The notes: a model not told the origin generated them from the letters alone. 64,000 nucleotides of DNA from Candidatus Dormibacteria bacterium (GCA_051002895.1 JBPCLW010000029.1:1234-65233); one strand, 5' to 3'; counted from the first letter of the stretch, positions 3,063 to 62,022 are shown. Made by a program: numbers and translations.

Positions 3063-4196
3063 CTACGCTGGCGGCGGGGAGGTGCGACGTCCGCCCAGGT
3101 GCTGCTGTGACAGCCCCAGGGTGATGGCCAGCGGTGTCACTCGAAGGAGCGCGGCAAGGGCGAGGGTGGCGGCGGTCGTCACCCCGATGAGAACGAGATC
3201 CACGGCGGCAGAGGTGGGGAGCCCGGGAAGCAGGAAACCGTTGCTGAGCGGGCCCAAGACGGTGTCAAGGAGGGCGGGATGAAGGATGTAAATGGCCAGC
3301 GACCAGCCACTGATGATGATCGTCCCGCGCGCCAGCCGTGGGTGCGCTGGTAGCCAGCGCGTCCCCGCGCAGGCGAGAAGCACGATGACACTGACCACGA
3401 AAGGTGCCAGCAGAGGGTTGAGGAACCCCCCCGTGCCCTGGTCGAAGTCCGGGTGGGCAGCGAATGACCACCGCAGGGAGAGCAGCACCTCGCCGCTCAT
3501 CGCCGTCGCCACCGTCGCGCCGCCGATCCACGCGAGCGAGCGCGGCGGGGAGCGGAGCCAGCCGGCCATGGCGATGCCGAGAGCGAAGTAGCCGAGCCAG
3601 TATGGAAAGAGGAGGTAGCCGCGCCAGAGAGAGAGTTGGGCGAGTGGAGAGTCGAGGGAGAGGGGGACGAGCAACCGCTGGGCCCCGAGGGTGAGTTGCA
3701 CCACGAGCGCGACGGTCGCCCAGAGCCAGAGGCGCCGACGCGGCCACACCGCGAAAGCCACATACAGCTGAGGGATGACGAGGAGGAACCAGAGATGGCC
3801 CGCACCGTTCGCCCACCAGGCAGCGTAACCACGGCTCTGCGCAATGTCCGAGGTGAGTGTCGAGCCGATGACACAGAACACCACTGACCAGACGATCCAG
3901 GGCAGCAGGCTGCGGAGCAGGCGGCGGCGAAGGAATGCCGATCCCCGTGGCTTCACCGCGTAGCCGTGCTGGAGGAGCGCGCCGCTGATCACCACGAAGG
4001 CTGGCACGGCGAAGCGGCTGACCCGGTCGGCCCCATCCCAGAACGAGGCATCCGGTTGGATCAGAGCCCATGTATTTCCGACGAGACGTCCCGTGGGAGG
4101 CCAGTGGACCCCATGGATGGCAACGACGCCGAGGGCGGCGACGGCTCGAACGGCGTCAGCACCGAGCAGGCGACTGGGCGAGGATGTCGTTGCCAT
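3063..4196 (-). CDS. Acyltransferase family 3 (OatA-like) integral membrane protein
   Basis: Polytopic hydrophobic C-terminal 378 aa (AVAALGVVAIHGVHW..., FAVPAFVVISGALL) typical of acyltransferase_3. The upstream 177 codons of ORF 3063..4727 are Arg/Pro-rich GC-artefact sequence. Start placed at the internal ATG (MATTSSPSRLL) at 4196; the exact start is uncertain. Confidence 0.55.
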   Translation of the reverse strand: MATTSSPSRLLGADAVRAVAALGVVAIHGVHWPPTGRLVGNTWALIQPDASFWDGADRVSRFAVPAFVVISGALLQHGYAVKPRGSAFLRRRLLRSLLPWIVWSVVFCVIGSTLTSDIAQSRGYAAWWANGAGHLWFLLVIPQLYVAFAVWPRRRLWLWATVALVVQLTLGAQRLLVPLSLDSPLAQLSLWRGYLLFPYWLGYFALGIAMAGWLRSPPRSLAWIGGATVATAMSGEVLLSLRWSFAAHPDFDQGTGGFLNPLLAPFVVSVIVLLACAGTRWLPAHPRLARGTIIISGWSLAIYILHPALLDTVLGPLSNGFLLPGLPTSAAVDLVLIGVTTAATLALAALLRVTPLAITLGLSQQHLGGRRTSPPPA

Positions 4197-4258
4197 GATG
4201 GTCAACCCTATCGGTCCACGGCCGGACCCGTCCCGTTCGCCGAGAGTGGGTGCCGACC

Positions 4259-5485
4259 CTACCGGGGTTCGGAGCGCCGACCGCCTCCCGTGGGCGCGTG
4301 GTCGAGGAGTGCCGGGGACACCGGGCGGTAGGCGGCGGCATAGGCGGTGTCGGTCCGGCCCTCGGCGTTGTGGATGAGCGGCACCAGGACGCGCAACACA
4401 ATGACCTGCAGAGCCGAGGCCACCGGCACGGCGAGCAGGGCGCCGACCATGCCGGCAACGGCGCCGCCGATGAGGAGGCCAAGGATGACAGCGAGGGCAG
4501 GGAGCGCGACCACCGCGTTCATGACCCGGGGGATGACGATGTTGGCGTCGGCAAGCTGGACGAGGAGGAGGATGACGAGGACGACGAGCGGATAGGTTGG
4601 ACCGATGGTGAATCCGAGCAGCACTGGGGGCACGACGCCAAGGAAGGGGCCGACGAGCGGGACCGCCGCGGTGACTCCGGCAAAGACACCGAGCAGGATG
4701 GGACTGGGAAGTCCCAGCAGGGCACAAGCGATTCCCGTGACAACACCGACGGCAACCATGTTGATCGCCACCGCGCGCAGGTATCCACCCATGCGGTAGC
4801 CCACCTCGTGGATGATGCTGCTCGCCAGGGATTGCAGGCGCAGCGGAAAGAGGTCGACAAAGAACGGCTTCAGCCGTGCGCTCGTCGTCAGCCAGAGAAA
4901 GCCCAGCACGAGAACGAGGATGAGGTTGATGAGGATGCTAACGATGTATCCGCTGATGGTGAGCAGGACCCCGCTCGACTGCGAAACGAAATTGGTGATG
5001 TAGTTCTGTACGGTGTCGTTGGTGATATTGAATCGCTTCTCGTTCTGAGTGATGACGTCCTTCACCTGGTCCTGGTGGTCTTGCAGGTTCTTTGCCAGGC
5101 TCGTCGCCTGCTCCACCAGCGGTTGCACGAGAATCGCCACGGTGAAGGAGAGGACGGCGAGAAGTCCGACATAGACGATCACGATGGAGAGCAACTGGTG
5201 AATGCCGCGGCGGCGCAGCAGCTCGACCATCGGCCGGATACCCTCGGCAAAGACGATGGCGATGAGAAAGAGCAGCACCAGGCTGAAGATCTGGGCGAGG
5301 ACCGCGATGGTGCCAAGCAGGGCCAGGACGATGACCGCGGCGACCACGAGGGTCCGCACGCTGACCGGCTGACGCCCGTGTTCCTCCGGCGTCTCCGGGA
5401 CGCCCTGCCGTCGCTGCGCAGGGCTCGGAGTGTGATCAGGCCTGGGAGCCGGGCCGCTCTCCTCCGGCGTGGTGTCCTTCGCCAT
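4259..5485 (-). CDS. AI-2E family transporter (PerM/UPF0118)
   Basis: 408 aa with multiple TM segments and the glycine-rich C-terminal half typical of AI-2E/UPF0118 proteins, plus an N-terminal cytoplasmic Pro/Glu-rich tail. Confidence 0.7.
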   Translation of the reverse strand: MAKDTTPEESGPAPRPDHTPSPAQRRQGVPETPEEHGRQPVSVRTLVVAAVIVLALLGTIAVLAQIFSLVLLFLIAIVFAEGIRPMVELLRRRGIHQLLSIVIVYVGLLAVLSFTVAILVQPLVEQATSLAKNLQDHQDQVKDVITQNEKRFNITNDTVQNYITNFVSQSSGVLLTISGYIVSILINLILVLVLGFLWLTTSARLKPFFVDLFPLRLQSLASSIIHEVGYRMGGYLRAVAINMVAVGVVTGIACALLGLPSPILLGVFAGVTAAVPLVGPFLGVVPPVLLGFTIGPTYPLVVLVILLLVQLADANIVIPRVMNAVVALPALAVILGLLIGGAVAGMVGALLAVPVASALQVIVLRVLVPLIHNAEGRTDTAYAAAYRPVSPALLDHAPTGGGRRSEPR

Positions 5486-17294: not shown

Positions 17295-18773
17295 ATGTCC
17301 GAAAACCGCCAGCGCCAGACCGTGTGCGGGGCGCAGGATAGCGGCATGGACGAGGAGTTCGAACGCCGCTACCAGGCGGTGCTCAGCCGGGACGCGCGCT
17401 TCGATGGATCGTTCGTCACCGCGGTGACGTCGACGGGGGTATTCTGCCGCCCAGTCTGCCCATCGCGGACACCGCGACGGGAGAACGTCCGCTTCTATGC
17501 CACGGCGCAGGCCGCGCGGAGCGCGGGTTTCCGCGCCTGCAAGCGGTGCGTCCCCGAGCCTGCCGTCGCAATCGGGGGTGCCGGTGGTGAGCCCGCCCTG
17601 GCGCTCATCGCAGATGGGTCCGCCGATGGCGGCGTCGGAGCAGTTGCGCGGAGACTCCATATCGGCGAGCGCCAGTTGCATCGCCGCGTCGCCAGGGCTG
17701 TCGGTGTGTCGCCGTTGCGACTGGCACAGAGTCGCCGGGTGCAGACAGCCCGCGCCCTGTTGGAGACGACGGTCCTGCCGATCACCGAGGTCGCATTCTC
17801 GTCGGGCTTCCGCTCGGTTCGGCAGTTCAATGACACCCTCCGCTCCGAGTTTCACTGTGCGCCGTCAGCAATCCGAAGCGCCGGTACCGCGCCCGGACCA
17901 GGCGGGTGGTTCCATGTACGACTGCGCGTGCGTCCGCCGCACGATACCGCCCGGCTGCTCTCCTTCCTGGGCACTCGCGCCATCGTTGGCATCGAGACCT
18001 GGGACGGCAGCATCTACCGCCGCGTACTGCGGACGCGCGGCGGCAGCGCCGTCATCGAACTTCAAGGGGGCGGTGAAGCCGTCCAACTTCGGGCCCGCGT
18101 CGACAATGTCGGCGACCTCGGGGAGGTCGTGCAGCGCAGCCGTCATATCATCGACGCTGATGCCGATCCCGGCGTCATCGCCGAGCGCCTGGGTGTCGAT
18201 CCTCTGCTGGGGCCATCGGTCGCGGCGGCGCCAGGTCTGCGGCTTCCCGGCGCTGCGGACGCCTTCGAGATCATGGTGCGCGCGGTACTCGGTCAGCAGG
18301 TGACCGTCGCGGGAGCGCGGACGCTCGCCGGCCGCATCGTCGCCCGCCACGGAACTGCGCTGGCCGAGCCGCACGGGGGAATTACGCACGTCTTCCCCGA
18401 TGCCCAAACCCTCGATGGCGCCGAGCTCTCCGGTCTCGGACTCACCGGTCGCCGTATCGATTCCCTCCATGCGCTGGCGGCTGCGGTGACCGAGGGAAAG
18501 CTCGACGTCGGCGGTCCTGCCGCGGTCATCGACGCCGGGTTGCAGCGCCTGCCCGGGTTCGGCCCCTGGACCCGCAGCTACATCGCCATGCGGGCGCTCG
18601 GAGATCCCGACGCGTTTCCTGCCGGCGACCTCGGGCTACGCCGCGCCTTGGAGCGCGCCGGCGTCCACGCATCTGTGCGCGCTCTCGAGGAGCGCAGCCA
18701 GGCCTGGCGGCCTTGGCGTGCTTACGCCGCCCTGCATCTCTGGAACTCCCTGACCCTGGAGGCGAACCCATGA
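17295..18773 (+). CDS. alkA: Ada-AlkA fusion protein: methylphosphotriester-DNA methyltransferase with AraC-type regulator, fused to DNA-3-methyladenine glycosylase II
   Basis: N-terminus has the Ada Zn-binding Cys cluster (FVTAVTSTGVFCRPVCPSR...CKRC) followed by an AraC HTH. C-terminal half is an HhH-GPD glycosylase domain (AlkA-like). Same architecture as mycobacterial Rv1317c. Confidence 0.8.
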   Translation: MSENRQRQTVCGAQDSGMDEEFERRYQAVLSRDARFDGSFVTAVTSTGVFCRPVCPSRTPRRENVRFYATAQAARSAGFRACKRCVPEPAVAIGGAGGEPALALIADGSADGGVGAVARRLHIGERQLHRRVARAVGVSPLRLAQSRRVQTARALLETTVLPITEVAFSSGFRSVRQFNDTLRSEFHCAPSAIRSAGTAPGPGGWFHVRLRVRPPHDTARLLSFLGTRAIVGIETWDGSIYRRVLRTRGGSAVIELQGGGEAVQLRARVDNVGDLGEVVQRSRHIIDADADPGVIAERLGVDPLLGPSVAAAPGLRLPGAADAFEIMVRAVLGQQVTVAGARTLAGRIVARHGTALAEPHGGITHVFPDAQTLDGAELSGLGLTGRRIDSLHALAAAVTEGKLDVGGPAAVIDAGLQRLPGFGPWTRSYIAMRALGDPDAFPAGDLGLRRALERAGVHASVRALEERSQAWRPWRAYAALHLWNSLTLEANP

Positions 18774-19326: not shown

Positions 19327-20268
19327 ATGGCTGAGGAGACGCTGGCAAACCGGCTGCGCAGCGGCGAGGTGCGTGCCCTGGCGCGGGCGATCCGCATGGT
19401 TGAGGATCGTGATCCTGCGGTCCCGCGGCTGCTCCGTGAGGTGCGCGGCGGCGCCGAGACGGCGATGATCACCGGTCTCACGGGGGCGCCGGGCAGTGGT
19501 AAGTCCACGCTCTGCGATCAACTCATCGGCCACTGGCGTGCCGCAGGCCACCGTGTGGGAGTTATCGCCGTCGATCCCTCCAGTCCCTTTACCGGCGGAG
19601 CCATTCTCGGCGACCGGGTGCGCATGCAACGGCACACTGGAGACGATGGGGTGTACATCCGCAGCATGGCGGCACGCGGGCACCTCGGCGGCCTTGCTTC
19701 CGCGGCTCGCGAGGCGATTCGCCTCGTCGCCGCCAGCGGTCGGGACCACTGCTTGCTGGAAACCGTCGGCGTGGGTCAGTCCGAACTGGAGGTGATGCAG
19801 ACCGCCGACACCACCATCGTGGTCACAACTCCATCGTCGGGCGACGCGGTGCAGATCATCAAGGCCGGGATCCTGGAGATTGCTGACATCTTTGTCGTCA
19901 ACAAGGCCGATCTGCCCGGCGCGGCCAGGGTCTACCGCGAACTGCGCGATCTCGTGCGCCAGACCAAGGCTCATGATGACTGGCAGCCGCCGGTGATCCA
20001 GACCGAGGCGTCGACGGGGAAGGCTGTTGAGGAACTCATCGAGGCAATCGACGCCCATCAGCGGACGATCGCGGCGACAGGGGAACTGCAGCGGCGGCGA
20101 GTGAGGCGCCTGCGCGCTGAGGTTGAGGCGATCGTGGTGGAGCGCGCGGCGCAGCGCGCGCGCCGGGCCCTGGGAAGCGGCGAACTGGGGGTCGATGACG
20201 ACACCGACCTCGCCAAGGCTGACCCCTACCTGCTTGCCGAGCGCATCCTCAGTGAGGCATCGGCATAG
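19327..20268 (+). CDS. meaB: Methylmalonyl-CoA mutase-associated G-protein chaperone MeaB (ArgK family)
   Basis: 313 aa. P-loop GLTGAPGSGKST, switch regions, and NKAD specificity motif (VVNKADL). Confidence 0.9.
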   Translation: MAEETLANRLRSGEVRALARAIRMVEDRDPAVPRLLREVRGGAETAMITGLTGAPGSGKSTLCDQLIGHWRAAGHRVGVIAVDPSSPFTGGAILGDRVRMQRHTGDDGVYIRSMAARGHLGGLASAAREAIRLVAASGRDHCLLETVGVGQSELEVMQTADTTIVVTTPSSGDAVQIIKAGILEIADIFVVNKADLPGAARVYRELRDLVRQTKAHDDWQPPVIQTEASTGKAVEELIEAIDAHQRTIAATGELQRRRVRRLRAEVEAIVVERAAQRARRALGSGELGVDDDTDLAKADPYLLAERILSEASA

Positions 20269-21052: not shown

Positions 21053-22678
21053 ATGTCCCAGACCGCACCCCGACCCACCAAGCGGAGCGCTCCGCGAATC
21101 CCCGAGGACACGCTTGGTGGCCTTCCACTGAAGCCCACCTATGGCCCCGAGGACAGCGCCCAGCGGGAACCCGCCAGGGTCGGAGCTCCCGGCGAGTACC
21201 CGTACACCCGCGGCATCCACGAGACCATGTACCGCGACAAGGTGTGGACGATGCGCCAGTTCGCCGGTTTCGGCAGCGCCGAGGACACGAATCAGCGCTA
21301 CCGATTCCTCCTTGCTCAGGGTCAGACCGGCCTCTCCGTCGCGTTCGACATGCCCACCCTGATGGGTCATGACTCCGACGCGCCCCACTCGCTCGGCGAA
21401 GTTGGTCGCTGCGGCGTCGCCATCGACACCGTCGAGGACATGAGCACGCTTTTCGCGGGTATCGATCTCGGCGTGGTCACCACCTCGATGACCATCAACT
21501 CTCCGGCTGCCATCGTGTTTGCCCAATACCTCGCAGTCGCGGAGGAGCAGGGGGTCGATTTCTCCCGTCTCGGTGGCACTCTCCAGAACGACATCCTCAA
21601 GGAATACGTCGCTCAGAAGGAGTTCATCTTTCCCATCGAACCATCGATGCGTCTGGTCAGCGATGTCGTCGTCTTCTGCGCGCAACACGTGCCCCGCTGG
21701 CATCCTATCTCGGTCAGCGGATATCACATCCGCGAGGCGGGCTCAACCGCGGCGCAGGAGCTGGCCTTCACCCTCGCCGACGGATTCGCCTACGTCGAGG
21801 CCGGAATTCGTGCCGGGCTCGACGTTGATGACTTCGCACCGCGGCTCTCGTTCTTCTTCAATAGCCACATCGACTTCTTTGAGGAGATCGCCAAGTACCG
21901 TGCCGCCCGCCGCATCTGGGCGCGACGGATGCGCGAGAAGTACGGGGCCACGAGCGAACGGTCTCTCAAGCTCAAGTTTCACACCCAGACCGCGGGCTGC
22001 TCACTCACCGCCCACCAGATCGAAAACAACATCGCTCGCACCGCGTTCGAGGCGATGGCGGCGGTGCTTGGCGGTACCCAGTCGTTGCATACGAACTCCA
22101 TGGACGAGGTGCTCGCGCTGCCCACCGAGAAGGCGGCACAGATCGCGCTACGGACCCAGCAGATTCTCGCCTACGAAACGGGCACGCCGAGCGTCGTCGA
22201 CCCCCTGGCGGGCAGCTACTTCGTCGAAGACCTCACCGATCGCATGGAGCAGGCCGCCGAGGACTACTTCACCGAGATCGAGCAGAGGGGCGGGATGCTC
22301 GCCGCCATCGCCGACGGCTTTCCTCAGCGTGAGATCGCCGACGCCGCCTTCCGCTACCAGACGCAGCTCGACTCCGGTGAGCGCGTCATCGTTGGTATCA
22401 ATGCCTTCTCCGAGATTGCCGAGGGAGCGGCTCCGGAGATTCTCGTCATCGATCCGCAGGTGGAGCACCAGCAAGCCCTACGCCTCAAGGATGTGCGTGA
22501 GCGCCGCGACAACGGTTCGGTGGCAACGCGCCTCGACGAGTTGCGCGTTGTGGCCGCCGGCAGCGACAACATCATCCCTGCCATCCTCGACGGTGTCCGG
22601 GCGCGGGCCACCGAGGGTGAGATCATCGGTGCTCTGCGCGACGTATTTGGTGTTCACCGGGAGACGCCAGCCTTTTGA
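21053..22678 (+). CDS. Methylmalonyl-CoA mutase family large-subunit catalytic domain protein (no B12-binding domain; IcmA/McmA-like)
   Basis: 541 aa, complete substrate-binding TIM-barrel domain (YPYTRGIH, RQFAGFGSAEDTN, TTSMTIN, SGYHIREAG). Ends ...RDVFGVHRETPAF with no C-terminal cobalamin domain. Roughly 55-60% identical by eye to the partial paralog at 1..1342. Confidence 0.9.
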   Translation: MSQTAPRPTKRSAPRIPEDTLGGLPLKPTYGPEDSAQREPARVGAPGEYPYTRGIHETMYRDKVWTMRQFAGFGSAEDTNQRYRFLLAQGQTGLSVAFDMPTLMGHDSDAPHSLGEVGRCGVAIDTVEDMSTLFAGIDLGVVTTSMTINSPAAIVFAQYLAVAEEQGVDFSRLGGTLQNDILKEYVAQKEFIFPIEPSMRLVSDVVVFCAQHVPRWHPISVSGYHIREAGSTAAQELAFTLADGFAYVEAGIRAGLDVDDFAPRLSFFFNSHIDFFEEIAKYRAARRIWARRMREKYGATSERSLKLKFHTQTAGCSLTAHQIENNIARTAFEAMAAVLGGTQSLHTNSMDEVLALPTEKAAQIALRTQQILAYETGTPSVVDPLAGSYFVEDLTDRMEQAAEDYFTEIEQRGGMLAAIADGFPQREIADAAFRYQTQLDSGERVIVGINAFSEIAEGAAPEILVIDPQVEHQQALRLKDVRERRDNGSVATRLDELRVVAAGSDNIIPAILDGVRARATEGEIIGALRDVFGVHRETPAF

Positions 22679-22984
22679 CTCCTGTGGCGCGGGCGGCGTG
22701 GATTCTCAACCGCCGTGGGAAGGAATCACCGTGTTGACCCCTTGGCGGCGTTGGGCCGTGGGCCAGGCCCCAGATCATGCTGCGGTACCGGACGCCAATG
22801 GTCCACCGACCCAGCAAGTCATTCCTCGACGGACAGCCACCCGGACAATGGCGCGCGGAGACGACTGCCTCGTCCACGCTGGTAGAGTTGGGCCTCGAAG
22901 GATCCACTTCAAGCAGGTTCTGTGAGGCCGCAAGGGGATCGCGCATCCGCGTGGCCCCTGACGGCTGGGAACCGAAGGAGGTGC

Positions 22985-23914
22985 ATGGCGGCGCTGACGG
23001 GCCATCGGCCGATGGAGCATGTCCTCTCCAGCGAGCAGTTCGACCGCGATGCCCTGGACGGCATCCTGCGTCGGGCCGCCGAACTCGCCGATGTTCGCGA
23101 CACACGCTTGGCCGGTCGGATCATGGCGGCGCTCTTCTACGAACCCTCGACGCGGACGCGCCTTTCCTTCGAAAGCGCCATGCTCCGCTTGGGGGGCGCC
23201 GTCATGGGTACGGAGGCCGCACACGAGTTCTCCAGTGCCATCAAAGGCGAAACCCTTGAAGACACCATTCGTATGGTTTCCTCGTACGCCGACGTCATCG
23301 TGCTCCGCCACGACCAGGCCGGAGCAGCGGCGCGGGCCGCCGCAGTGTCCTCTGTTCCGGTGCTGAATGGCGGAGACGGCCCTGGTGAGCATCCCACCCA
23401 GGCGCTGCTCGACCTCTACACGCTGCAAGCAGAGCTGGGCCGCATTGACGGGCTCCATGTTGCCCTCTGCGGCGATCTGCGATTCGGCCGCACCGCACGC
23501 TCCTTGGCTATTCTGCTCACTCGCTACCACGACGTGCGGGTAACGTTCGTCGCGCCGCAGGTGGCGCAGATAGGCACTGACATCCGCGAGCGTCTCGATC
23601 GGGCCGGCATTCCTCACATGCTCACCGACCGGCTCGACGATGTCGTGGCGGGTGTCGATGTCGTGTACCAGACGCGTATCCAGAAAGAGCGCTTCACCGA
23701 CACAGCGGAGTTTGAGGCAGCCCGTCACAGCACCCGCATCGACCCGGCGATGATGCAACTCCTTCCCGCGCACGCCATCGTCATGCATCCCTTGCCCCGC
23801 GTTGACGAGATCTCCCCGGAGGTCGACGCCGATCGACGTGCGGCGTACTTCCGCCAGGCCGCCAACGGCGTCGCGGTCCGCATGGCCCTGCTCGATATGG
23901 TGGTTCCCCGATGA
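22985..23914 (+). CDS. pyrB: Aspartate carbamoyltransferase catalytic subunit
   Basis: ATCase motifs STRTR, HPTQALLDL, HPLP. GAAGGAGG lies just upstream. Start ATG 22985 is 3 nt from the SD; alternative ATG at 23012. Confidence 0.85.
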   Translation: MAALTGHRPMEHVLSSEQFDRDALDGILRRAAELADVRDTRLAGRIMAALFYEPSTRTRLSFESAMLRLGGAVMGTEAAHEFSSAIKGETLEDTIRMVSSYADVIVLRHDQAGAAARAAAVSSVPVLNGGDGPGEHPTQALLDLYTLQAELGRIDGLHVALCGDLRFGRTARSLAILLTRYHDVRVTFVAPQVAQIGTDIRERLDRAGIPHMLTDRLDDVVAGVDVVYQTRIQKERFTDTAEFEAARHSTRIDPAMMQLLPAHAIVMHPLPRVDEISPEVDADRRAAYFRQAANGVAVRMALLDMVVPR

Positions 23915-24489
23915 CAGTGCAGGGTGGTGTCCCCACCACCCTGGTGATGGACGGTGAGACCGCGGCTCGGACGCTTCGTCGTCTCGCCCACGAGATCGTG
24001 GAGCGCCATCCCCAGACGGATGACCTCGTTCTGGTGGCAGTGCGTGGTGGCGGCGTGCCCATCGCCCGCGCTCTAGCCGACGCACTCGCGCGGCTCGGGC
24101 ATCCGGCGCTCCGTTGCGCGCTGCTCGATGTGCGCGACTACCGCGATGACATTCCCCGTCCGACCCAGCCTGACGGCAACGCCCTCACCGGGCTCGACGG
24201 TGACGGTGCAGCGGCACCCCTCATTGGCGGCGCCGCTGTCATCCTCGTCGATGACGTCGTTCAGACCGGGCGAACCCTGCGCGCCGCACTCGACTGCCTC
24301 TCCGCATGGGGACGTCCGGCGACAGTGGAGCCGTGCGTCCTCATCGACCGCGGGCAGCGCGAACTCCCCATCCGGCCGAGCTTCGTCGGCAAGAATATTC
24401 CCGCGGCTGCAGACGACTGGGTGCAGGTGATGCTCGATGTCGGCACCGCGGCCGAGGCCCCCGGCGTCTTCCTGGTGAAGCGGACATGA
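23911..24489 (+). CDS. pyrR: Bifunctional pyrimidine operon regulatory protein / uracil phosphoribosyltransferase PyrR
   Basis: 192 aa. PRTase motif VILVDDVVQTGRTLRAALD and PyrR N-terminal region LVAVRGGGVPIARALAD. ATGA-type overlap with pyrB and pyrC. Confidence 0.8.
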   Translation: MTVQGGVPTTLVMDGETAARTLRRLAHEIVERHPQTDDLVLVAVRGGGVPIARALADALARLGHPALRCALLDVRDYRDDIPRPTQPDGNALTGLDGDGAAAPLIGGAAVILVDDVVQTGRTLRAALDCLSAWGRPATVEPCVLIDRGQRELPIRPSFVGKNIPAAADDWVQVMLDVGTAAEAPGVFLVKRT

Positions 24490-25841
24490 ACTGCATCCTC
24501 CGCGGGGTACGCGTCATCGACCCGTTGGCGGGGCGCGATGACATCAACCAGGACGTGTGGCTGACCGAGGGCCGGATCATCGCCATCTTCAAGTACATGG
24601 GTGACAGCACCGTGCCGGTGATCGATCTCACGCCGCCGCCCGGGGGCACGCCAACCATCCTGTGCCCCGGCTTCATCGACCTGCACACACATCTGCGAGA
24701 ACCCGGCGACGAGGGAGCAGAGACCCTCGCCAGTGGATCGCGCGCCGCTGCCGCCGGCGGTTTCGCCCAGGTGGTGGCGATGGCCAACACGGATCCCCCG
24801 ATCGACGATGTCGATGGGGTGACGAAGGCGTGCGTTCGCTCGGTGGCGGCGAGCATCCGGGTGCGGGTGGCGGCGGCACTCACGCGTGGCCTCGAGGGCG
24901 ACGAACTCGTCGACCTCGAGGCCTGCGCCGAGGCCGGCGCGGTCGCCTTCACCGACGATGGCCGCAACGCGGTGTCGCAACGGTTGCTCAGCGAGGCGAT
25001 TCGCCGCGCCGCGCGATTGCACAGACCCATCCTCGTCCATCCCGAGGATGAGGAGTACATCGGCCGCATCAACGGCGCTCATGGCCTCACCGCGCGGTGT
25101 CCCGTGCGGCCCGTGGAGGCGGAGACCAGAGCAGTGGCGCTCGCCCTGCGCGCCCTGCATGATGCGGGCACGGGTCGACTCCATCTCCAGCACATCAGCT
25201 CCGCGCCCAGTATCGACCTCATCCGCGAGGCGCGCGCCGACGGAGTCGAGGTCACCGCGGAAGTGACTCCACACCACCTGGCGATGTGGCTGCCGGTGGC
25301 GGAGGAGCCGGAGTCGGCGGCGTTGCTGAAGGTGAATCCCCCGCTCCGCGGCCAGCGGGACCGTGCCGCGCTCATTCAGGCCCTTCGCGACGGCGTCGTC
25401 GACGCCGTTGCCACCGACCATGCGCCGCATCGCGCCGAGGAGAAGGCATTGCCGTACGCTGAGGCGGCGCCGGGGATGCTTGGCCTCGAGCTTGCGCTGG
25501 CCGTCTGTCTCACCATGGGTGGCATGGGTGGAGACTGGATCCCCACCCTGGTGGAGCGGCTCACTGCGGGTCCGTACCGCGTGCTCGGCGGAGCGACCTC
25601 CCTGCTCAGCGAGCCGCGCCTGGTCATCGGCGAGGCGGCGACGTGCGTCCTCTTCGACCCCGGCGCAGAGTGGACGGTGGGGAGCGAGGACCTGCGCAGC
25701 AACTCGCACAACACACCGCTGCTGGGCATCACCCTGCGGGGGAGGGTGCTCATGACCCTCGTCGAGGGTGCTCTCGTGCATCACGACCGGCGACGCTTGC
25801 CCTGGCCGCTGCCAACCCCCACGGAGCCCATGCGTGCCTGA
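24486..25841 (+). CDS. pyrC: Dihydroorotase
   Basis: From ATG 24486 (overlaps the pyrR stop): [13 protein letters not shown]..., metal-binding HTHLR and DHAPH motifs. 451 aa. Confidence 0.85.
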
Positions 25842-28800
25842 GCGGGGGCGCCTCGCCCTGGAGTCCGGTGCCATCTTCGAGGGCATCCTCTTTGGCGCGC
25901 CGCTTCTCGAATCGCGAAGCGGCGAGGTCGTCTTCAACACCTGCATGACGGGATATCAGGAGGTCTGCAGCGATCCCTCGTACGCCGGGCAGATGGTGGT
26001 GATGACCCATCCGCTGATGGGGAACTACGGCATTCGCGACGCTTTCGCAGAGTCACCGCGACTGCACGCGAGGGCGCTGGTCATCCGCGAGCTCTCGCCG
26101 TGTGTCGGCCACGGCCGCGCCGATCGCAGCCTCGATGAGGAACTGAGCCGCCATAACGTGCCGGGGATCAGCGGCGTCGACACTCGCGCTCTCACCCGGC
26201 ATCTCCGAGACCGGGGAACCCTGCGGGGAATCCTTTCCCCGGCAACGCGCTTGGGGGTGGCCGAACAGGTCGAGGCCGCCCGATCCGCGCCCTGGGTTCC
26301 CGATCTCGATCTGGTGGCCGAGACCTCCCAGACTGAGGCGTCCCTGGAGTGGACCGAGCGACTGCCCGAGGAACTCGAGGTTGGAGTTCGGGCGGCCGGC
26401 GGTCTCGACCGTTTTGCCGGCATTCGTGTCGTTGCGGTTGATCTCGGCATCAAGCGCAACCAGCTGCGCGCGCTCCGCAGTCGAGGAGCCGACATCACTG
26501 TGGTCCGCCACGACGCGTCTCTCGAGGATGTTTTGCGCCACCGGCCCCAGGGCGTCCTCCTCAGTAACGGTCCCGGAGACCCCGCCAACCTCATCTGCCA
26601 GGTTGAGCTCTGCCGGAAACTGCTGGAGAAACGGGTCCCGCTGCTCGGTATCTGTCTCGGCCATCAGGTGCTCGGTCGGTCCGCCGAGGCATCGACCTCG
26701 CGGCTGCCCTTTGGACATCACGGTGGCAACCATCCGGTGCGTGACGAGACCAGCGGCGCTGTCTATGTGACCTCGCAGAATCACGAGTTCCAGGTGATCG
26801 CCGATACACTTGGCCAGGGGTGGCGGGTGAGCGAGCGCAATCTCAACGACGGGAGTGTCGAGGGGTTGGCCCACGATGAGTTGCCCGCTTTCAGTGTGCA
26901 GTACCATCCCGAGGGCGCTCCCGGACCACAGGATCGTGCCGGCGTCTTCGACCGCTTCCTGGAGATGGCCGGGGAACACCGCCCCGGCGCCGTGCATCTG
27001 CGATCGCCAATCGGCGACGCCATGCCCCACCGCGGGCTGGTGGCGCCGCCCACGGCAGTGGGGGAGAAGCCGCACTGCGTACTCGTCATCGGCTCCGGGC
27101 CGGTGGTCATCGGCCAGGCTGCGGAATTCGATTACGCCGGTACCCAGGCCTGCCGAGCGCTCCGCGAGGAGGGCGTCCGAGTGGTCCTCGTCAACAGCAA
27201 CCCGGCCACGATCATGACCGACGACGATTCGGCCGATGCAGTCTACGTCGAGCCGCTCACGGTTGCGGTGGTGGAGCGCATCATCGAGATGGAGAAACCC
27301 GACGGTCTTCTCGCCACTCTCGGTGGCCAGACCGGGCTCAATCTTGCGGTGGCGCTCGACGACGCCGGAGCGTTGCGCCGTCATGGCGTTCGCGTTCTCG
27401 GGAGCTCACTGGAGGCGATTCGCACTGCCGAGGATCGCGAGAAGTTCAAGAAGCTGCTGCGCTCCATCGGTGAGCCCGTGCCCGATTCGCGGACCGTCAG
27501 TTCGCCGGCTGAGGCTCGCATCTTTCTCGCCGAGATTGGCCTGCCGCTCGTGGTCCGCCCCGCCTTCACTTTGGGAGGCACCGGCGGAGGTCTCTGCGAC
27601 ACCGAGGAGCAGTTCGTCGACACCGTGGCGGCGGGGTTGGCGGCGTCGCCGATCAGCCAGGTACTCGTCGAGCGTTCTCTGACGGGGTGGCGCGAACTCG
27701 AGTACGAGGTAATGCGTGACGCGTCTGGGACGTGCATCACCGTCTGCAACATGGAGAACCTCGACCCCATGGGCGTGCACACGGGGGATTCCATCGTGGT
27801 GGCGCCGGCCCAGACACTGACCGACCGCGAGCATCAGCAGTTGCGCAGCGCCGCTCTGCGCATCATCAGTGCCCTGGAGATCGCCGGTGGCTGCAATGTG
27901 CAGTTCGCCATGGCTCCAGACTCGCACGAGTACCACGTCATCGAGGTCAACCCGCGGGTATCACGAAGTTCAGCGCTGGCGAGCAAGGCAACGGGATACC
28001 CCATTGCCCGGGCCGCCGCGAAGATCGCCTGTGGCAAGCGTCTCGATGAGATCAGCAACGCGGTGACCGGCAAGACGTGCCTCGCCTTCGAGCCGGCGCT
28101 TGACTACTGCGTGGTGAAGATTCCCCGCTGGCCATTCGACAAGTTCCCCGACGCCGATCGTCGGCTGGGCACGCAGATGAAGTCGACCGGAGAGGTCATG
28201 GCCATCGAGCGGAGTTTCCCAGCAGCCCTCAGCAAGGCTCTCCGCTCCCTGGAACAGGCGCCGCCCACTGCGGCGGAGGTCCAGGACCCCGTGCTCGTCC
28301 AGAACCCCAATGACCGCCGCATCTTTGCGGTCATGGAAGGGTTGCGCTCGGGCCGGACGCCCGAGGACGTCAGCCGCGCCAGTGGGATCGGTGTCTGGTT
28401 CACTGAGCACATCGCCCGCCTTGTCGCCATTGAGGAGCGGCTCCGCCGGCATGGTGTCGATGACGCGACGCTGCGGACTGCAAAGCGTGCCGGTCTCGCT
28501 GATCGCCGCATTGCTCGGCTCGCCGACACGCCGGCCGCTGCGATTACCGAGCAACGTCAGCGCATCGGTCTGTCGCCCACCTTCAAGTGTGTCGATACGT
28601 GTGCCGCAGAATTCGTCGCCGCCACTCCGTACTATTACTCCACCTTCGAGACCGAGGACGAGCGTGTCGGCGCTGGGGATGACACTGTCGTTGTCCTCGG
28701 CAGCGGACCCATTCGCATCGGCCAGGGGATCGAGTTCGATTACTGCTCAGTGCAGGCGGCCCAGTCGCTGCGCCAGCAGGGCGTGGCTGCGGTCATGGTG

Positions 28801-30375
28801 AACAGCAATCCTGAGACCGTCTCCACTGACTTCGACTGCAGCACCCGCCTCTACTTCGAACCGCTTGACGCTGAGTCCGTTCTCGCCGTTATCGAGGCCG
28901 AGAGAGCGACCGGTGCTGTCGTCCAATTCGGCGGCCAGACCGCCATCAACCTGGCCCGACCCCTTGCCGATGCCGGTGTGAACATTCTCGGCAGCAGCGT
29001 TGCAACCATCGAGGCGGCGGAGGACCGCCGGCTGTTCGAGGCTCAGATGCGTGCTCTCCAGATCCCCCAGCCGCGGGGCGCGGCAACGCTCGACCTCGAC
29101 GAGGCCACCGAAATCGCTGATCGCATCGGATATCCGGTGCTGGTGCGGCCGTCGTTCGTGCTCGGCGGTCGCGCCATGGAAGTGGTGAACAGCCGCGGCC
29201 AACTGCGCCGTTTTCTCGAGCTGGCCATGGCGGCGCTGCCCGAGGACGGTGATGGTCGCCGCGGCAACGTGCTCATTGATCAGTACCTCCTGGGCACCGA
29301 GGTTGACGTCGATTGCATCAGCGATGCCGACACCGTTGTCATTCCTGGCCTCATGGAGCATGTCGAGCGCGCCGGAGTGCATAGCGGCGATTCCATGGCA
29401 GCATACCCGGCGCCTAACCTCAGTGGCGGACTGCGCGCCGAGATCGTTGATGCGACGGTGAGCATTGCTCGGGCCATGAAGATTCGCGGGCTTTGCAACA
29501 TCCAGTTCGTGGTCTGGCGCGGCCGTGCCCATGTCATCGAAGTGAATCCCCGCGCTTCTCGGACGGTGCCCTTCCTCAGCAAGGTGACGGGGGTGCCCAT
29601 GGTGGGTTTGGCGACGCAGGTCATGCGTGGCGCGATGCTCGCCGATCTCGGCTGGGAAACGGGACTGGTCCCCGACCGTCCCCTTGTCGCCGTCAAAGCC
29701 CCTGTGTTCTCCACGGGGAAGCTCACCCTGGTGGACAGCGTGCTGGGCCCCGAGATGAAGTCCACCGGCGAGGTGATGGGGATCGACACCGACCTTGGCG
29801 CTGCCATTGAGAAGGCGTTCCTCGCGGCTCTCGGGGTCATGCCGACGAGTGGCGCCGTGCTCTGTAGCGTTGCCGACCCTGACAAAGCGGACGCCCTGCC
29901 GGTCCTCGCTCAACTCGCCGAACTCGGCTTCGACATCTACGCCACGGCGGGAACCGCCCAGGCGCTGGGCGTGGCCGGCATCAGTGCGATCCCGGTTGGT
30001 CGCATCGGGCACGGCCGCCCCAACGTCATCGACATCATCGAGGAGGGCCGGGTCTCGATCGTCGTCAACACAGTGTCGCATTTCGAAACTGATGAGTTGC
30101 ACTTCGACGAGCATGGTGGCCTCATCGCTGCAGCCGGGCGCACGGTGAAGGATGGCTACCGTATTCGCCTCGCCGCCGAGCGCCGTCGCATTCCCTGCTG
30201 CACATCGATGGACACCGCGAGAGCGCTCGTCGATGCCATGGTGCGACAGCACCGACAGATGGCGCGTCAGCACGGAGCGGTTGAGGTGAGTGTCGCTCCG
30301 GTGAAGGCGTACCGGGAGGGCGCGGTTCCGGTCAGTCGAGCACACCCAGCCAGTCGCCGAGTAGAGCGCGGTTGA
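25834..30375 (+). CDS. carAB: Carbamoyl-phosphate synthase, small (glutamine amidotransferase) and large (synthetase) subunits encoded as one continuous reading frame (apparent CarA-CarB fusion)
   Basis: A single 1535-codon ORF. Residues 1-400 or so are CarA ([23 protein letters not shown]). Then, with no intervening stop, CarB follows (MPHRGL...[21 protein letters not shown], two ATP-grasp repeats, MGS-like C-terminus). Start placed at in-frame GTG 25834 overlapping the pyrC stop (GTGCCTGA). ATG 25768 is an alternative. Confidence 0.75.
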
Positions 30376-31387
30376 GGTGTCGCACCACGGCGGGACCTTC
30401 GTAGATGAAGGCGGTGTAGAGCTGCATTAGGTCGGCACCGGCGGCCAGGGTCCGGCGCGCGTCCTCGGGCGTGGCGATCCCGCCGACGCCGATGAGCGGT
30501 AACCGTCCCCGCAGTGCCGCTGAAACTACTTCGATGGTCCGCAACGAGCGGAATTGCAATGCGCTGCCGCTGACCCCGCCGCGCCCGAGGATGTCGTCAC
30601 CAAGCAGCTCCCGGCGGGCGACGCTCGTGTTGGTTGCGATGATCCCCGCGGCTCCTGCGTCGACGCAGGCGTCGACCAGTTCGCTGACGCGCCCGGCGTC
30701 CGGGGAGAGCTTGACGAGAAGCGGGGTGGTGTGGGTGGTGCTGTCGAGGTGGCGCAGCGTTTCGCGCATGCCGCGCACCAGGAAGCTGAGCTCCCGGGCC
30801 TGCTCGAGCGAGCGTAGACCCGGCGTGTTCGGGGAGCTGACGTTGACGGCGACGTAGTCGGCGTGGGGATGGATGACGCGCAGTGATGCTCTGCAGTCGG
30901 CGAGCGTGTCCGCCAACGGCGTCACCCTGGACTTGGAGATGTTCCAGCCCACGGGCACGTTAGCGGCCGGTGACGCCGCGGCGTGGGCGGCAGCAGCGCT
31001 GGCACCCCGGTTGGGAAAGCCCATGGCGTTGACGATGGACCGCTGCGGGGGGAATCGCCAAATCCGGGGACGCGGATGGCCCGGCTGAGAATGCCAGGTG
31101 ACGGTTCCCGCTTCGATGAATCCAAAGCCGAAGGCGGCCAATGCACCGGTGGCGAGACCGTTCTTGTCGAACCCCGCGGCAAGCCCCACCGGGCTGCGGA
31201 ACTTGAGCCCCCAAAACTCGCGGTGGCCGTGCAGGTCAGAGGCCCCGCTCCAACGCTCGATGAAGCGCAGGAGAATCGGGCGTCCCGATGCTCGCACGAG
31301 CTGAGCCACGACCAGCTCGTGGGCGATCTCGGGGTCACGACGCGAGAGCGCGAAGAGAACCGGCCGCATGAGCCGCGGATAGAGCAT
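30332..31387 (-). CDS. pyrD: Dihydroorotate dehydrogenase (quinone), class 2
   Basis: 351 aa. Class 2 DHODH membrane-associated N-terminal extension and conserved motifs (GFDKNG, VNVSSPNTPGLR, IGVGGI). 3' end overlaps the carAB 3' end by 44 nt (convergent). Confidence 0.85.
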   Translation of the reverse strand: MLYPRLMRPVLFALSRRDPEIAHELVVAQLVRASGRPILLRFIERWSGASDLHGHREFWGLKFRSPVGLAAGFDKNGLATGALAAFGFGFIEAGTVTWHSQPGHPRPRIWRFPPQRSIVNAMGFPNRGASAAAAHAAASPAANVPVGWNISKSRVTPLADTLADCRASLRVIHPHADYVAVNVSSPNTPGLRSLEQARELSFLVRGMRETLRHLDSTTHTTPLLVKLSPDAGRVSELVDACVDAGAAGIIATNTSVARRELLGDDILGRGGVSGSALQFRSLRTIEVVSAALRGRLPLIGVGGIATPEDARRTLAAGADLMQLYTAFIYEGPAVVRHLNRALLGDWLGVLD

Positions 31388-31485: not shown

Positions 31486-31722
31486 ATGCTGCTCTGGGCC
31501 ATTGGACTTGTCGTGCTGCTTGCGCTGCTCGCAGGTGCGGAGCGGTATTCGTCCACCACCTGGAGGGCCGGGGATCATCGGGCGCTTGTCGACTGCTCCC
31601 GCTGTGAGGTGCGCTATCCGCGGACGATGATCGTTGGATCGATCCCGCGCTGTCCGGAGGGCCATGTTCTGCGAGTACCTCGGCCGCACTCCTCCGAACC
31701 CGAACCGCCGACGCCCCTGTAG
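31486..31722 (+). CDS. Hypothetical small membrane protein with C-terminal CxxC...CPxxH cluster (dubious)
   Basis: ORF only (internal Met MLLWAIGLVVLLALLAG). Its stop codon TAG falls inside the predicted tRNA-Lys (positions 8-10 of the tRNA), which argues against it being real. Confidence 0.15.
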   Translation: MLLWAIGLVVLLALLAGAERYSSTTWRAGDHRALVDCSRCEVRYPRTMIVGSIPRCPEGHVLRVPRPHSSEPEPPTPL

Positions 31723-31786
31723 CTCAACGGCAGAGCAGCCGGCTTTTAACCGGTTGATGCGGGTTCGATTCCTGCCAGGGGCACAC
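31713..31786 (+). tRNA. tRNA-Lys (anticodon UUU)
   Basis: Hand-folded. Acceptor stem GCCCCTG/CAGGGGC (7 bp, perfect); D-arm GCTC-AACGGCA-GAGC; anticodon stem GCCGG/CCGGT with loop CTTTTAA (U33, anticodon TTT, A37); 4-nt variable region; T-arm GCGGG-TTCGATT-CCTGC; discriminator A. CCA is not encoded. Confidence 0.75.
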
Positions 31787-61560: not shown

Positions 61561-61965
61561 AGAACGGCGGCTGGCGAGATCGCAGCCGAGGCGTTGGGCC
61601 TCGAATTCAAGGAGGCTCGGAAGGCCGGAGAACTGGGCTACACATGGCTCGGGTATTCGCCCAAGTCACCCTCCCCCACTCGCGCGTGGCTGGTCCCGAG
61701 TACGTCCGACACAACGGCCTGCTAACGCTTTCGGTGTTGGCCCCCTCAGCCGTAGGAATTCCTTACGGCTCCATCCCCCGGCTCCTGCTTGCCTGGGTAA
61801 CGACCGAGGCGGTCCGGTCCAAGGAGCAGCAATATGTACGAGCCTCTTCGGCGGCTACGGGAGAGCGGAAAAGCACTTACCGGTCGTCGGCGCATAACGA
61901 GATCTCACTGCGCGCCATCGAGATGCCAATGGCGGGTTAGAGTCGGGTAACCGCGTGCAATGCGG

Positions 61966-62022
61966 ACGCAGGGCGATGGGGCCCGCCCAATCCGCCGAGA
62001 GGCTGATGGCTCCTACTCATTG
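61966..62022 (+). ncRNA. Fluoride riboswitch (crcB RNA motif)
   Basis: GGGCGATGGGGCCCGCCCAATCCGCC-GAGAG-GCTGATGGCTCCTACTC matches the crcB motif consensus (GGCGAUGG…CCGCC…CUGAUG.…CCUAC) and closely resembles the Thermotoga petrophila reference aptamer as I remember it. It lies 10 nt upstream of the crcB start. Confidence 0.8.

Follow-up and report, generated by a model that had tools for sequence, protein, structure and literature searches.

A fused carA-carB gene in Candidatus Dormibacteria predicted to encode a single-chain carbamoyl-phosphate synthase

In a 64,000-nucleotide stretch of DNA from a soil bacterium of the Candidatus Dormibacteria (the window; coordinates are counted from its first letter), carA runs into carB in one reading frame. 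Is this a genuine gene fusion, or has a carA stop codon been lost, and what kind of carbamoyl-phosphate synthase (CPS) would result? According to an unreferenced statement in a review, bacterial CPS II occurs either as a heterodimer or as a single fused peptide (PMC6022934). Literature searches for carbamoyl in Dormibacter returned nothing, and phrases for a CarA-CarB fusion matched eukaryotic CAD only. The comparisons and structure predictions presented here make it very probable that the locus encodes a genuine single-chain, glutamine-dependent CPS, which would have arisen by fusion of an ancestral carA-carB pair early in the Dormibacteria lineage and been inherited since.

Reading frame, operon and domain content

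The ORF listing of the window contains a stop-free frame over 25768..30375 (+). The fused gene occupies 25834..30375 (+) of it, and its architecture is common to 119 homologue clusters. The start taken in the original prediction, GTG 25834, yields a product of 1513 aa (1513 codons plus stop) and has three lines of support: it shares 8 nt with the end of pyrC, stop included (GTGCCTGA), in an arrangement identical to that of the relatives L081-L084, a Shine-Dalgarno-like GGAG can be read from the sequence 7 nt upstream (25823..25826, +), and the resulting N-terminus agrees with those of the homologues. The original prediction of carA and carB in a single uninterrupted frame of this length is thus borne out by a continuous ORF holding two complete domain sets.

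The gene is the final one of a pyrB-pyrR-pyrC-carAB operon, of which it would be the last, translationally coupled cistron. It is preceded by pyrB, encoding aspartate carbamoyltransferase (22922..23914, +, start approximate; PF02729, PF00185), by a pyrR-like phosphoribosyltransferase gene that overlaps the pyrB stop (ATGA) and has the same position in L081-L084 (ORF at 23911..24489, +; PF00156), and by the dihydroorotase gene pyrC (24486..25841, +; PF01979), whose product comprises 451 aa from ATG 24486 versus 447-451 aa in these relatives. Gene order and start/stop overlaps are conserved in L081-L084 as well. Downstream, the dihydroorotate dehydrogenase gene pyrD (30332..31387, -; PF01180, ORF coordinates) is convergent with carAB, with a tail-to-tail overlap of 44 nt.

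The CarA half (aa 1-382; 25834..26979, +) consists of the small-chain N-domain (PF00988, aa 7-134, 1.9e-44) and a class-I glutamine amidotransferase domain (PF00117, aa 201-377, 1.2e-45). Pfam and NCBIfam profiles place a complete CarA at aa 5-382, above the curated equivalog cut-offs (TIGR01368: 403 bits, cut-off 307; NF009475: 379 bits, cut-off 221), and E. coli CarA aligns to aa 5-384. The codon of the catalytic Cys274 in the GICLGHQ motif lies at 26653..26655 (+), and those of His358-Pro359-Glu360, which supply the remainder of the glutaminase triad, at 26905..26913 (+); the triad C274/H358/E360 is invariant in the 38 fused sequences of alignment A1. We take Cys274 to be the equivalent of E. 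coli CarA Cys269.

The CarB half (aa 412-1473; 27067..30252, +) has the complete architecture of two pre-ATP-grasp/ATP-grasp units, an oligomerisation domain and an MGS-like allosteric domain (PF25596 and PF02786, twice each, PF02787 and PF02142). It scores 1370 bits with TIGR01369 (cut-off 1027) and 1396 bits with NF003671 (cut-off 599), and E. coli CarB aligns to aa 415-1416 of the fused protein. A comparison of C-termini, together with the ORF coordinates, delimits a C-terminal tail (aa 1474-1513; 30253..30372, +) that is ~9-12 aa longer than in the relatives; the stop and the 41 nt before it lie within the overlap with pyrD.

Distribution and descent of the fusion

Of the 120 top-ranked database clusters, which are 69-79% identical and stem for the most part from MAGs of Candidatus Dormibacteria, 119 carry the fusion, a count that leaves room for unfused close relatives, since the whole-protein ranking adds the scores of both halves and thus favours fused proteins; neither this ranking nor the CarA-only list, which is without full-length fusions, gives an unbiased ratio of fused to unfused genes. 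The 120 clusters were drawn from independent assemblies in NCBI, JGI, ENA and Logan, with contigs of up to 1.5 Mb, and all 119 fused clusters carry both anchor motifs within one chain. Fused as well are three more divergent species genomes and a further 32 fragments, and the junction is in frame in all 11 independent complete Illumina-type metagenome contigs that span it. In 60 other taxa, the carA stop lies 24-48 aa past the HPE motif.

These data bear directly on the possibility that the carA stop was lost through a sequencing or assembly error or through a private mutation and that the organism really has two genes. Indel errors do occur in this gene in some related assemblies (L112, L030), and the single alternative frame that was read across the junction is likewise free of stops; stops are rare in every frame of high-GC DNA, so that a frame can stay open by chance. 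Against this stand the in-frame fusion in the 119 clusters, the three species genomes and the 11 metagenome contigs, the monophyly of the fused clade (see below) and a conserved linker motif, E-[KR]-P-[KR], whose reading frame is preserved. An artefact or private mutation is therefore extremely improbable.

Searches with CarA alone did recover gene calls that contain no more than CarA (65-72% identity), the majority of which are accounted for by frame breaks in the linker (as in L109 and L111), by a contig end or by an indel-rich assembly. One 1.7-kb contig, L113, shows a clean, ATGA-coupled two-gene carA/carB junction. Its CarA is 75-85% identical to members of the fused clade, and the contig falls inside or near that clade; the identity is uniform along the length of CarA, while the CarB fragment, of 59 aa, is so conserved that it cannot tell a chimera from a true junction. 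Because of this junction, the fusion appears to be neither strictly universal nor irreversible. The relatives thus share the fusion, separate genes being confined to sister and outgroup lineages and to this one short contig. With intact catalytic residues and a monophyletic fused clade, the choice that the original prediction had left between a genuine fusion and a lost stop falls to the former: on the sequence evidence, the fusion is genuine and lineage-wide in Dormibacteria, is not a sequencing error, and belongs to a common type of gene fusion, with a known architecture.

In a CarB tree constructed by neighbour-joining only, the fused sequences form a monophyletic group (98/100) that is placed within the unfused bacterial CarBs, with the unfused Chloroflexota CarB L046 as its sister (100/100); eukaryote-type long fusions (1400-2244 aa) form a separate clade. 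This nesting and the distance from the CPS/CAD fusions point to an independent origin, and on this tree the Dormibacteria fusion has a bacterial ancestry separate from that of the eukaryotic fusion. An unrelated small gene sits between carA and carB in L046, the nearest unfused sister, which puts the ancestral junction, and with it a simple point loss of the stop, beyond reconstruction. That fused CPS is typical of eukaryotes, as had been pointed out for this locus, is correct yet incomplete, given the independent bacterial fusion described here and the separate fusions of a few other bacterial lineages.

The tether between the two halves

The halves are joined by a tether (aa 383-411; 26980..27066, +) that is predicted to be disordered, as indicated by low pLDDT and by the lack of profile coverage. 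The linker had been put at 15 aa; it measures ~19 aa (388-406) when counted as the residues without counterpart in the alignment ranges of the E. coli subunits, and 26-29 aa when its limits are set by AlphaFold confidence or by the ends of the profile matches. The AlphaFold model, covering aa 1-1200 of 1513, has a pLDDT of 78.5 and a pTM of 0.76; residues 383-408 fall below a pLDDT of 50 and are without secondary structure. Superposition of the model as one body on single-chain human CPS1 (5DOU) gives a TM of 0.83 (1222 columns), and that on E. coli CarA a TM of 0.91. The predicted docking of the two halves thus follows that of solved CPS structures, and the linker between them is predicted to be disordered.

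At the DNA level, the tether has a coding-type codon pattern (GC1/2/3 = 0.86/0.62/0.86), and it ends in the conserved motif E-K-P-H/K. Beyond this motif, the linkers of the fused relatives are A/G/P/S/R-rich and highly variable (109 of 119 sequences are distinct). The spacing between the anchor motifs ranges from 49 to 149 aa, as compared to 40-44 aa in unfused pairs; the shortest natural tethers (47-49 aa) therefore exceed the normal termini by a mere ~3-9 residues and the longest by ~105-109.

The MAG's public annotation lets carB begin at an in-frame ATG within the tether (Met397; 27022..27024, +): the deposited CarB (P0002) equals window aa 397-1513 exactly, and the CarA half is absent from that gene call. 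CarB might accordingly be made also, or mainly, by internal initiation at this codon, beside a CarA-containing product. MPKR is a common CarB start, which the MPHR at Met397 superficially resembles, and the original prediction had regarded MPHRGL as the canonical N-terminus of the large subunit. Alignment contradicts this view: residue 9 of E. coli CarB aligns to residue 415 of the fused protein, so that residue 1 would fall at ~407, ten residues past Met397. Moreover, Met397 is not conserved; any Met occurs in only 31 of the 118 other linkers, at scattered positions, and MPxR in none of the 118. The 25 nt upstream of ATG 27022 hold no Shine-Dalgarno-like motif, whereas the start at 25834 has its GGAG, and internal initiation would leave the CarA part without a stop. 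Separate production of CarB is thus improbable.

Alternatively, the fused chain could be a precursor whose tether is removed or severed proteolytically once the chain has folded, giving rise to a two-chain heterodimer. A tether that is predicted to be disordered and exposed, and that tolerates any sequence and length, would suit such processing; the linkers, however, share no conserved cleavage motif, the shortest tethers with their few surplus residues would be poor protease substrates, and the single-chain CPS1 of the solved structure (5DOU) stays intact. We judge cleavage to be slightly less probable still than internal initiation, and retain the intact single chain as the preferred reading.

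Some linkers contain palindromes or repeats. In one fused subclade, a 136-nt palindromic element lies inside the linker and is translated in frame; elsewhere, a second palindrome and tandem 15-aa repeats are present. When metagenome contigs were scanned with 20-mers, 22 matches were obtained: the full 136-nt element is confined to carAB linkers (15 contigs), and the remaining 7 matches share only 20-29 nt with it. The idea of a dispersed mobile repeat is accordingly unsupported, full copies being present in carAB linkers only. A second recurring linker peptide, compared with the palindromic element read in another frame or strand, showed no significant DNA similarity. A bolder interpretation, which we put forward tentatively and would hesitate to prefer, is that the tether acts as a freely evolving 'scratch pad' in a single-chain CPS invented independently of eukaryotes, and that the gene occasionally breaks or re-splits there (L109, L111, L113).

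Relation to known synthases and implications

The E. coli enzyme (CarA/CarB; 1BXR, 1JDB) has the same domain set and order and the same triad as the fused protein, and is the closest in sequence (949 bits for CarB plus 312 bits for CarA, versus 966 bits for human CPS1). It consists of two chains, whereas the fused protein has neither a carA stop nor a carB start and instead has a variable, disordered tether; having no stop between its halves, the fused protein is set apart from an alpha-beta heterodimer by subunit organisation, not by enzyme family. Human CPS1, CPS III and CAD/URA2 likewise carry glutaminase followed by synthetase in one chain; dependence on N-acetylglutamate is a trait of CPS I and CPS III. 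The alignment with human CPS1 crosses the junction (197-1414 of the fused protein versus 207-1428 of CPS1), which indicates a similar linker length. Common descent with the eukaryotic fused clade is nevertheless contradicted by the separate clade and the greater closeness to the E. coli subunits. In contrast to CAD, which carries DHOase and ATCase domains in its chain, the fused protein has neither, pyrB and pyrC being separate upstream genes. Ammonia-dependent CPS I has lost the catalytic Cys; the fused protein retains it, and, unlike eukaryotic CPS, is encoded in a bacterial pyr operon. Other bacterial CarA-CarB fusions (the P0122/P0272/P0274 group, P0277 and P0279/P0282) share the architecture and lie in compact, prokaryote-style neighbourhoods; they are 43-49% identical to the fused protein, branch at separate points among unfused CarBs and form small clades of few clusters, whereas the fusion in Dormibacteria is lineage-wide.

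The single-chain CPS could function in the following manner: The active species would be one chain of ~160 kDa (by length), whose CarA and CarB halves are predicted to adopt the folds and the docking of the classical heterodimer, with a short, disordered and evolutionarily unconstrained tether that spans from the final helix of CarA to the first strand of CarB. Given classical docking, glutamine-derived ammonia would still reach the first ATP-grasp site via the internal tunnel. The fusion likely fixes a 1:1 stoichiometry and guarantees assembly, from which a selective benefit may follow; in other respects, the enzyme would be expected to share the chemistry and the allosteric regulation (UMP, IMP, ornithine) of bacterial CPS II.

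The locus represents a clean and well-sampled convergent fusion with the same glutaminase-synthetase order as eukaryotic CPS I/III and CAD, and its relatives provide linkers of naturally graded length in an enzyme whose function relies on an ammonia tunnel between the subunits. While its scientific value is modest, its practical value for annotation is more immediate: product names for the fused proteins in JGI and NCBI read "large subunit" only, and with such names and truncated gene calls, carA, the gene of the glutaminase subunit, could be wrongly scored as missing in metabolic reconstructions of Dormibacteria MAGs. Should the scratch-pad interpretation hold, the family would constitute a natural, well-sampled system in which to study how a channelling enzyme undergoes fusion and fission and which linkers it tolerates.

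A single CarA-CarB frame at the end of the pyrimidine operon

An open reading frame without a stop codon extends from 25768 to 30375 on the forward strand of the window, and the GTG at 25834 is well supported as the carAB start by its sequence surroundings: an 8-nt overlap (GTGCCTGA) joins it to the stop of the dihydroorotase gene upstream, as also found in the loci of four relatives, a GGAG motif lies 7 nt upstream, and the resulting N-terminus agrees with those of homologues. Pfam and NCBIfam models place a complete CarA (small-chain domain and class-I amidotransferase) at residues 5-382 and a complete CarB at residues 412-1473, the latter comprising two pre-ATP-grasp/ATP-grasp units, an oligomerisation domain and an MGS-like allosteric domain. 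Both halves exceed the curated equivalog cut-offs (CarA, 403 bits against TIGR01368, cut-off 307; CarB, 1370 bits against TIGR01369, cut-off 1027). The original prediction, which had carA and carB in one uninterrupted frame of 1513 aa beginning at GTG 25834, is thus borne out in both its extent and its start.

The gene is the last of a translationally coupled operon of pyrB (22922-23914), a pyrR-like gene (23911-24489), pyrC (24486-25841) and carAB, all on the forward strand and joined by overlaps of ATGA, ATGA and GTGCCTGA. This order recurs in relatives, where either pyrK-pyrD or pyrD alone comes next. In the window, pyrD (30332-31387) lies on the reverse strand, shares 44 nt with the 3' end of carAB and has just 45% identity with the pyrD that follows carAB on the same strand in the closest relative (locus L084); strand and low identity together point to a local rearrangement or replacement. 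The C-terminal tail of CarAB is ~9-12 aa longer than those of relatives.

Several other features surround the operon. Just upstream, on the forward strand, are genes for a MeaB-type GTPase (19327-20268) and methylmalonyl-CoA mutase (21053-22678), preceded by an open reading frame (17295-18773, +) with Ada Zn-binding, AraC-type HTH, AlkA N-terminal and HhH-GPD glycosylase domains. The product is an Ada/AlkA-type repair fusion, and its architecture recurs in the relative L083. A tRNA-Lys (anticodon TTT; 31713-31784, +) lies between pyrD and an acyltransferase gene, and a fluoride riboswitch (crcB motif, RF01734; 45.5 bits, gathering score 34) is found at 61963-62022 (+).

In the deposited gene call of this genome the CarA half is left out. 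The NCBI protein of this MAG (P0002; 1117 aa, window 27022-30375), annotated as 'carbamoyl-phosphate synthase large subunit', is identical to residues 397-1513 of the window protein; the annotator therefore began "carB" at an internal Met. Such an internal start is not a feature of the family, because Met397 is not conserved (any Met occurs in only 31 of 118 other linkers, at scattered distances, and the MPxR motif in none of them), no Shine-Dalgarno-like motif is seen upstream of ATG 27022, and Met1 of E. coli CarB aligns ~10 residues downstream of Met397.

Distribution and descent of the fusion

The whole product was searched against a collection of 5.8 billion proteins. Among the best 120 clusters (69-79% identity), P0002 alone lacks the CarA half; the other 119 are 1485-1589 aa long with both small-chain and large-chain domains, and all carry QYHPE (CarA) and GSGPxxIGQ (CarB) motifs on one chain. 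They derive from NCBI, JGI, ENA and Logan assemblies, with contigs of up to 1.5 Mb, and those with names are Candidatus Dormibacteria/Dormiibacterota MAGs. A scan with one genome for each GTDB species showed true fusion in just three of the 80 best loci (L001-L003, Dormibacterota-type MAGs, 62-65% identical in the junction region). In 60 of the 80, including Chloroflexia and Chloroflexota, carA stops 24-48 aa past the HPE motif, and another 16 did not show both motifs together. L030 (~4214-4380), a Solirubrobacterales MAG from long reads, reads through the junction with neither stop nor Met and meets a stop ~120 aa into carB; this looks like an indel error, the alternative reading being a nascent fusion. 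Dormibacteria-type relatives thus share the fusion, and an assembly error private to the window, or a carA stop lost there, as the original prediction had allowed, is excluded by its recurrence in the 119 clusters from separate assemblies and in L001-L003.

A whole-product search ranks fused proteins at the top, as the scores of the two halves add up. A search with the CarA half alone, the list of which excludes full-length fused proteins, was therefore added; it gave 32 fused fragments and CarA-only gene calls of 407-485 aa (65-72% identity). Inspection shows that most of the latter are not ancestral two-gene arrangements but breaks within the linker, with tails that read as fused-type linker in a shifted frame. 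The contig of L110 ends 63 nt past the stop of its 'carA' call, and L112 belongs to an indel-rich long-read assembly in which pyrB is also split and carB truncated. In L109 (6150-6420) and L111 (6240-6560) the frame shifts within or beside a palindromic insert, the carB frame being open back into the linker with the conserved linker peptide still encoded; the break in L109 is a 5-nt difference and not a homopolymer slip, so that a recent real frameshift is possible. From the assemblies alone, the splits in L109-L112 may be either real re-splitting or assembly error. L113 (354-1690), a 1.7-kb metagenome contig, differs in having a clean ATGA overlap of carA stop and carB start, with CarB beginning MKVMVIGSGP and a CarA that shares 75-85% identity with members of the fused clade throughout its length; it may represent a lineage, within the fused clade or adjacent to it, that is unfused or has split again. 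The fused state is therefore dominant in the clade and not strictly universal.

A neighbour-joining tree of the CarB region (80 sequences, 1032 columns, 100 bootstraps) groups every Dormibacteria-type fusion in a single clade (98/100) within the radiation of unfused bacterial CarBs, with the unfused Chloroflexota sequence L046 as sister (100/100). Proteins of 1400-2244 aa whose length and domain content are of the eukaryotic type make up a clade of their own on the other side of the root. Against the sequences of solved structures, the window protein scores 949 bits with E. coli CarB plus 312 bits with E. coli CarA, and 966 bits with the fused human CPS1. By tree placement and these scores the fusion has a bacterial origin, independent of the eukaryotic fusion. 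The Dormibacteria CarA-CarB protein is a real, lineage-wide, independently evolved fusion. In L046 a small gene (~3575-3934) lies between carA and carB, encoding a 23S rRNA-intervening-sequence protein (PF05635, E = 3e-39).

Other bacteria too have single-chain CarA-CarB proteins. With 50% clustering, a single full-length representative (P0121) stands for the Dormibacteria clade, and scores then drop by a wide margin; small bacterial-type fused clades unrelated to it (P0122/P0272/P0274; P0277; P0279/P0282) branch separately and independently of it in the tree, and the neighbourhoods of these other fusions are compact and prokaryote-style. One of them (they include loci L107 and L108) is labelled Deltaproteobacteria, and L108 adjoins priA. 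How easily such fusions can arise is seen in a Baekduia MAG (L031), where the carB ATG directly follows the carA stop in the same frame.

A variable tether

In the 119 clusters the two anchor motifs (QYHPE in CarA and GSGPxxIGQ in CarB) lie 49-149 residues apart, the spacing being 64 in the window and 47 in L002, against a summed ~40-44 in unfused carA/carB pairs; the extra segment can therefore be as short as a few residues or as long as ~105-109. In the composition of the linkers A/G/P/S/R predominate and V/I/F/Y/W are scarce, and the 119 include 109 distinct sequences; their sole common feature is an E-[KR]-P-[KR] motif immediately ahead of the CarB core. The longest tether seen (149 aa between the anchor motifs) is that of P0035, and at residues ~400-460 of this protein a 15-aa unit (GGGYPQGAAPHHRGS) occurs in four tandem copies.

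A subclade made up of 39 of the 119 clusters has a conserved linker peptide (…LAQTALRGSPSRNELASRSVEPLRELA…; …LRGSPSRN…SVEPLREL…), the DNA of which is a palindrome of 136 nt; its outer arms, 26 nt each, are 92% complementary, and an inverted repeat is nested in it. The element is translated in frame within the linker, as in L082 (11150-11285), and is also present in L086, L087, L090-L094, L096, L098, L099 and L101-L105. In a metagenome scan the whole element was found only within carAB linkers (15 contigs, 84-100% identity), all 11 of the 11 junction-spanning contigs being in frame; the scan thus gave no evidence of a dispersed mobile repeat. A second, unrelated palindromic, hairpin-forming insert (L083, 11129-11347; peptide ...GAGGSRNAAEPRAPIASQGDRTP...) occurs in the linkers of the P0013/P0020/P0031/P0036 group. 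The window linker has neither insert, nor the 15-aa tandem repeats.

Predicted architecture and working

An AlphaFold2 model of residues 1-1200 of the 1513, built from a 38-sequence alignment, has a mean pLDDT of 78.5 and a pTM of 0.76. Residues 383-408, which follow the final CarA helix (370-381) and precede the first strand of CarB (415-419), have pLDDT values below 50 and no secondary structure. Taken as one body, the model fits onto single-chain human CPS1 (TM 0.82-0.83, ~1220 columns), and its CarA part matches E. coli CarA with a TM of 0.91. The simplest reading of the model would be a classical CPS II with two tethered subunits and unchanged docking. The glutaminase triad C274, H358 and E360 is invariant in the alignment of 38 fused sequences from two clades, and the enzyme should accordingly be read, on sequence grounds, as glutamine-dependent; every defining feature of such a synthase that can be read from the sequence is present except the usual two-chain organisation. 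With eukaryotic single-chain CPS it has architecture and predicted quaternary geometry in common; its descent is different, and the extra domains are missing. That CPS II of bacteria may also occur as one fused peptide is mentioned, with no reference given, in a review (PMC6022934); our literature search found no paper describing the Dormibacteria fusion.

Given the predicted docking, the ammonia tunnel would be unchanged, and the fusion would fix the 1:1 stoichiometry of the subunits and guarantee their assembly. In evolutionary terms the fusion is of modest interest; for annotation it matters in practice to some degree, since the deposited call omits the CarA half.
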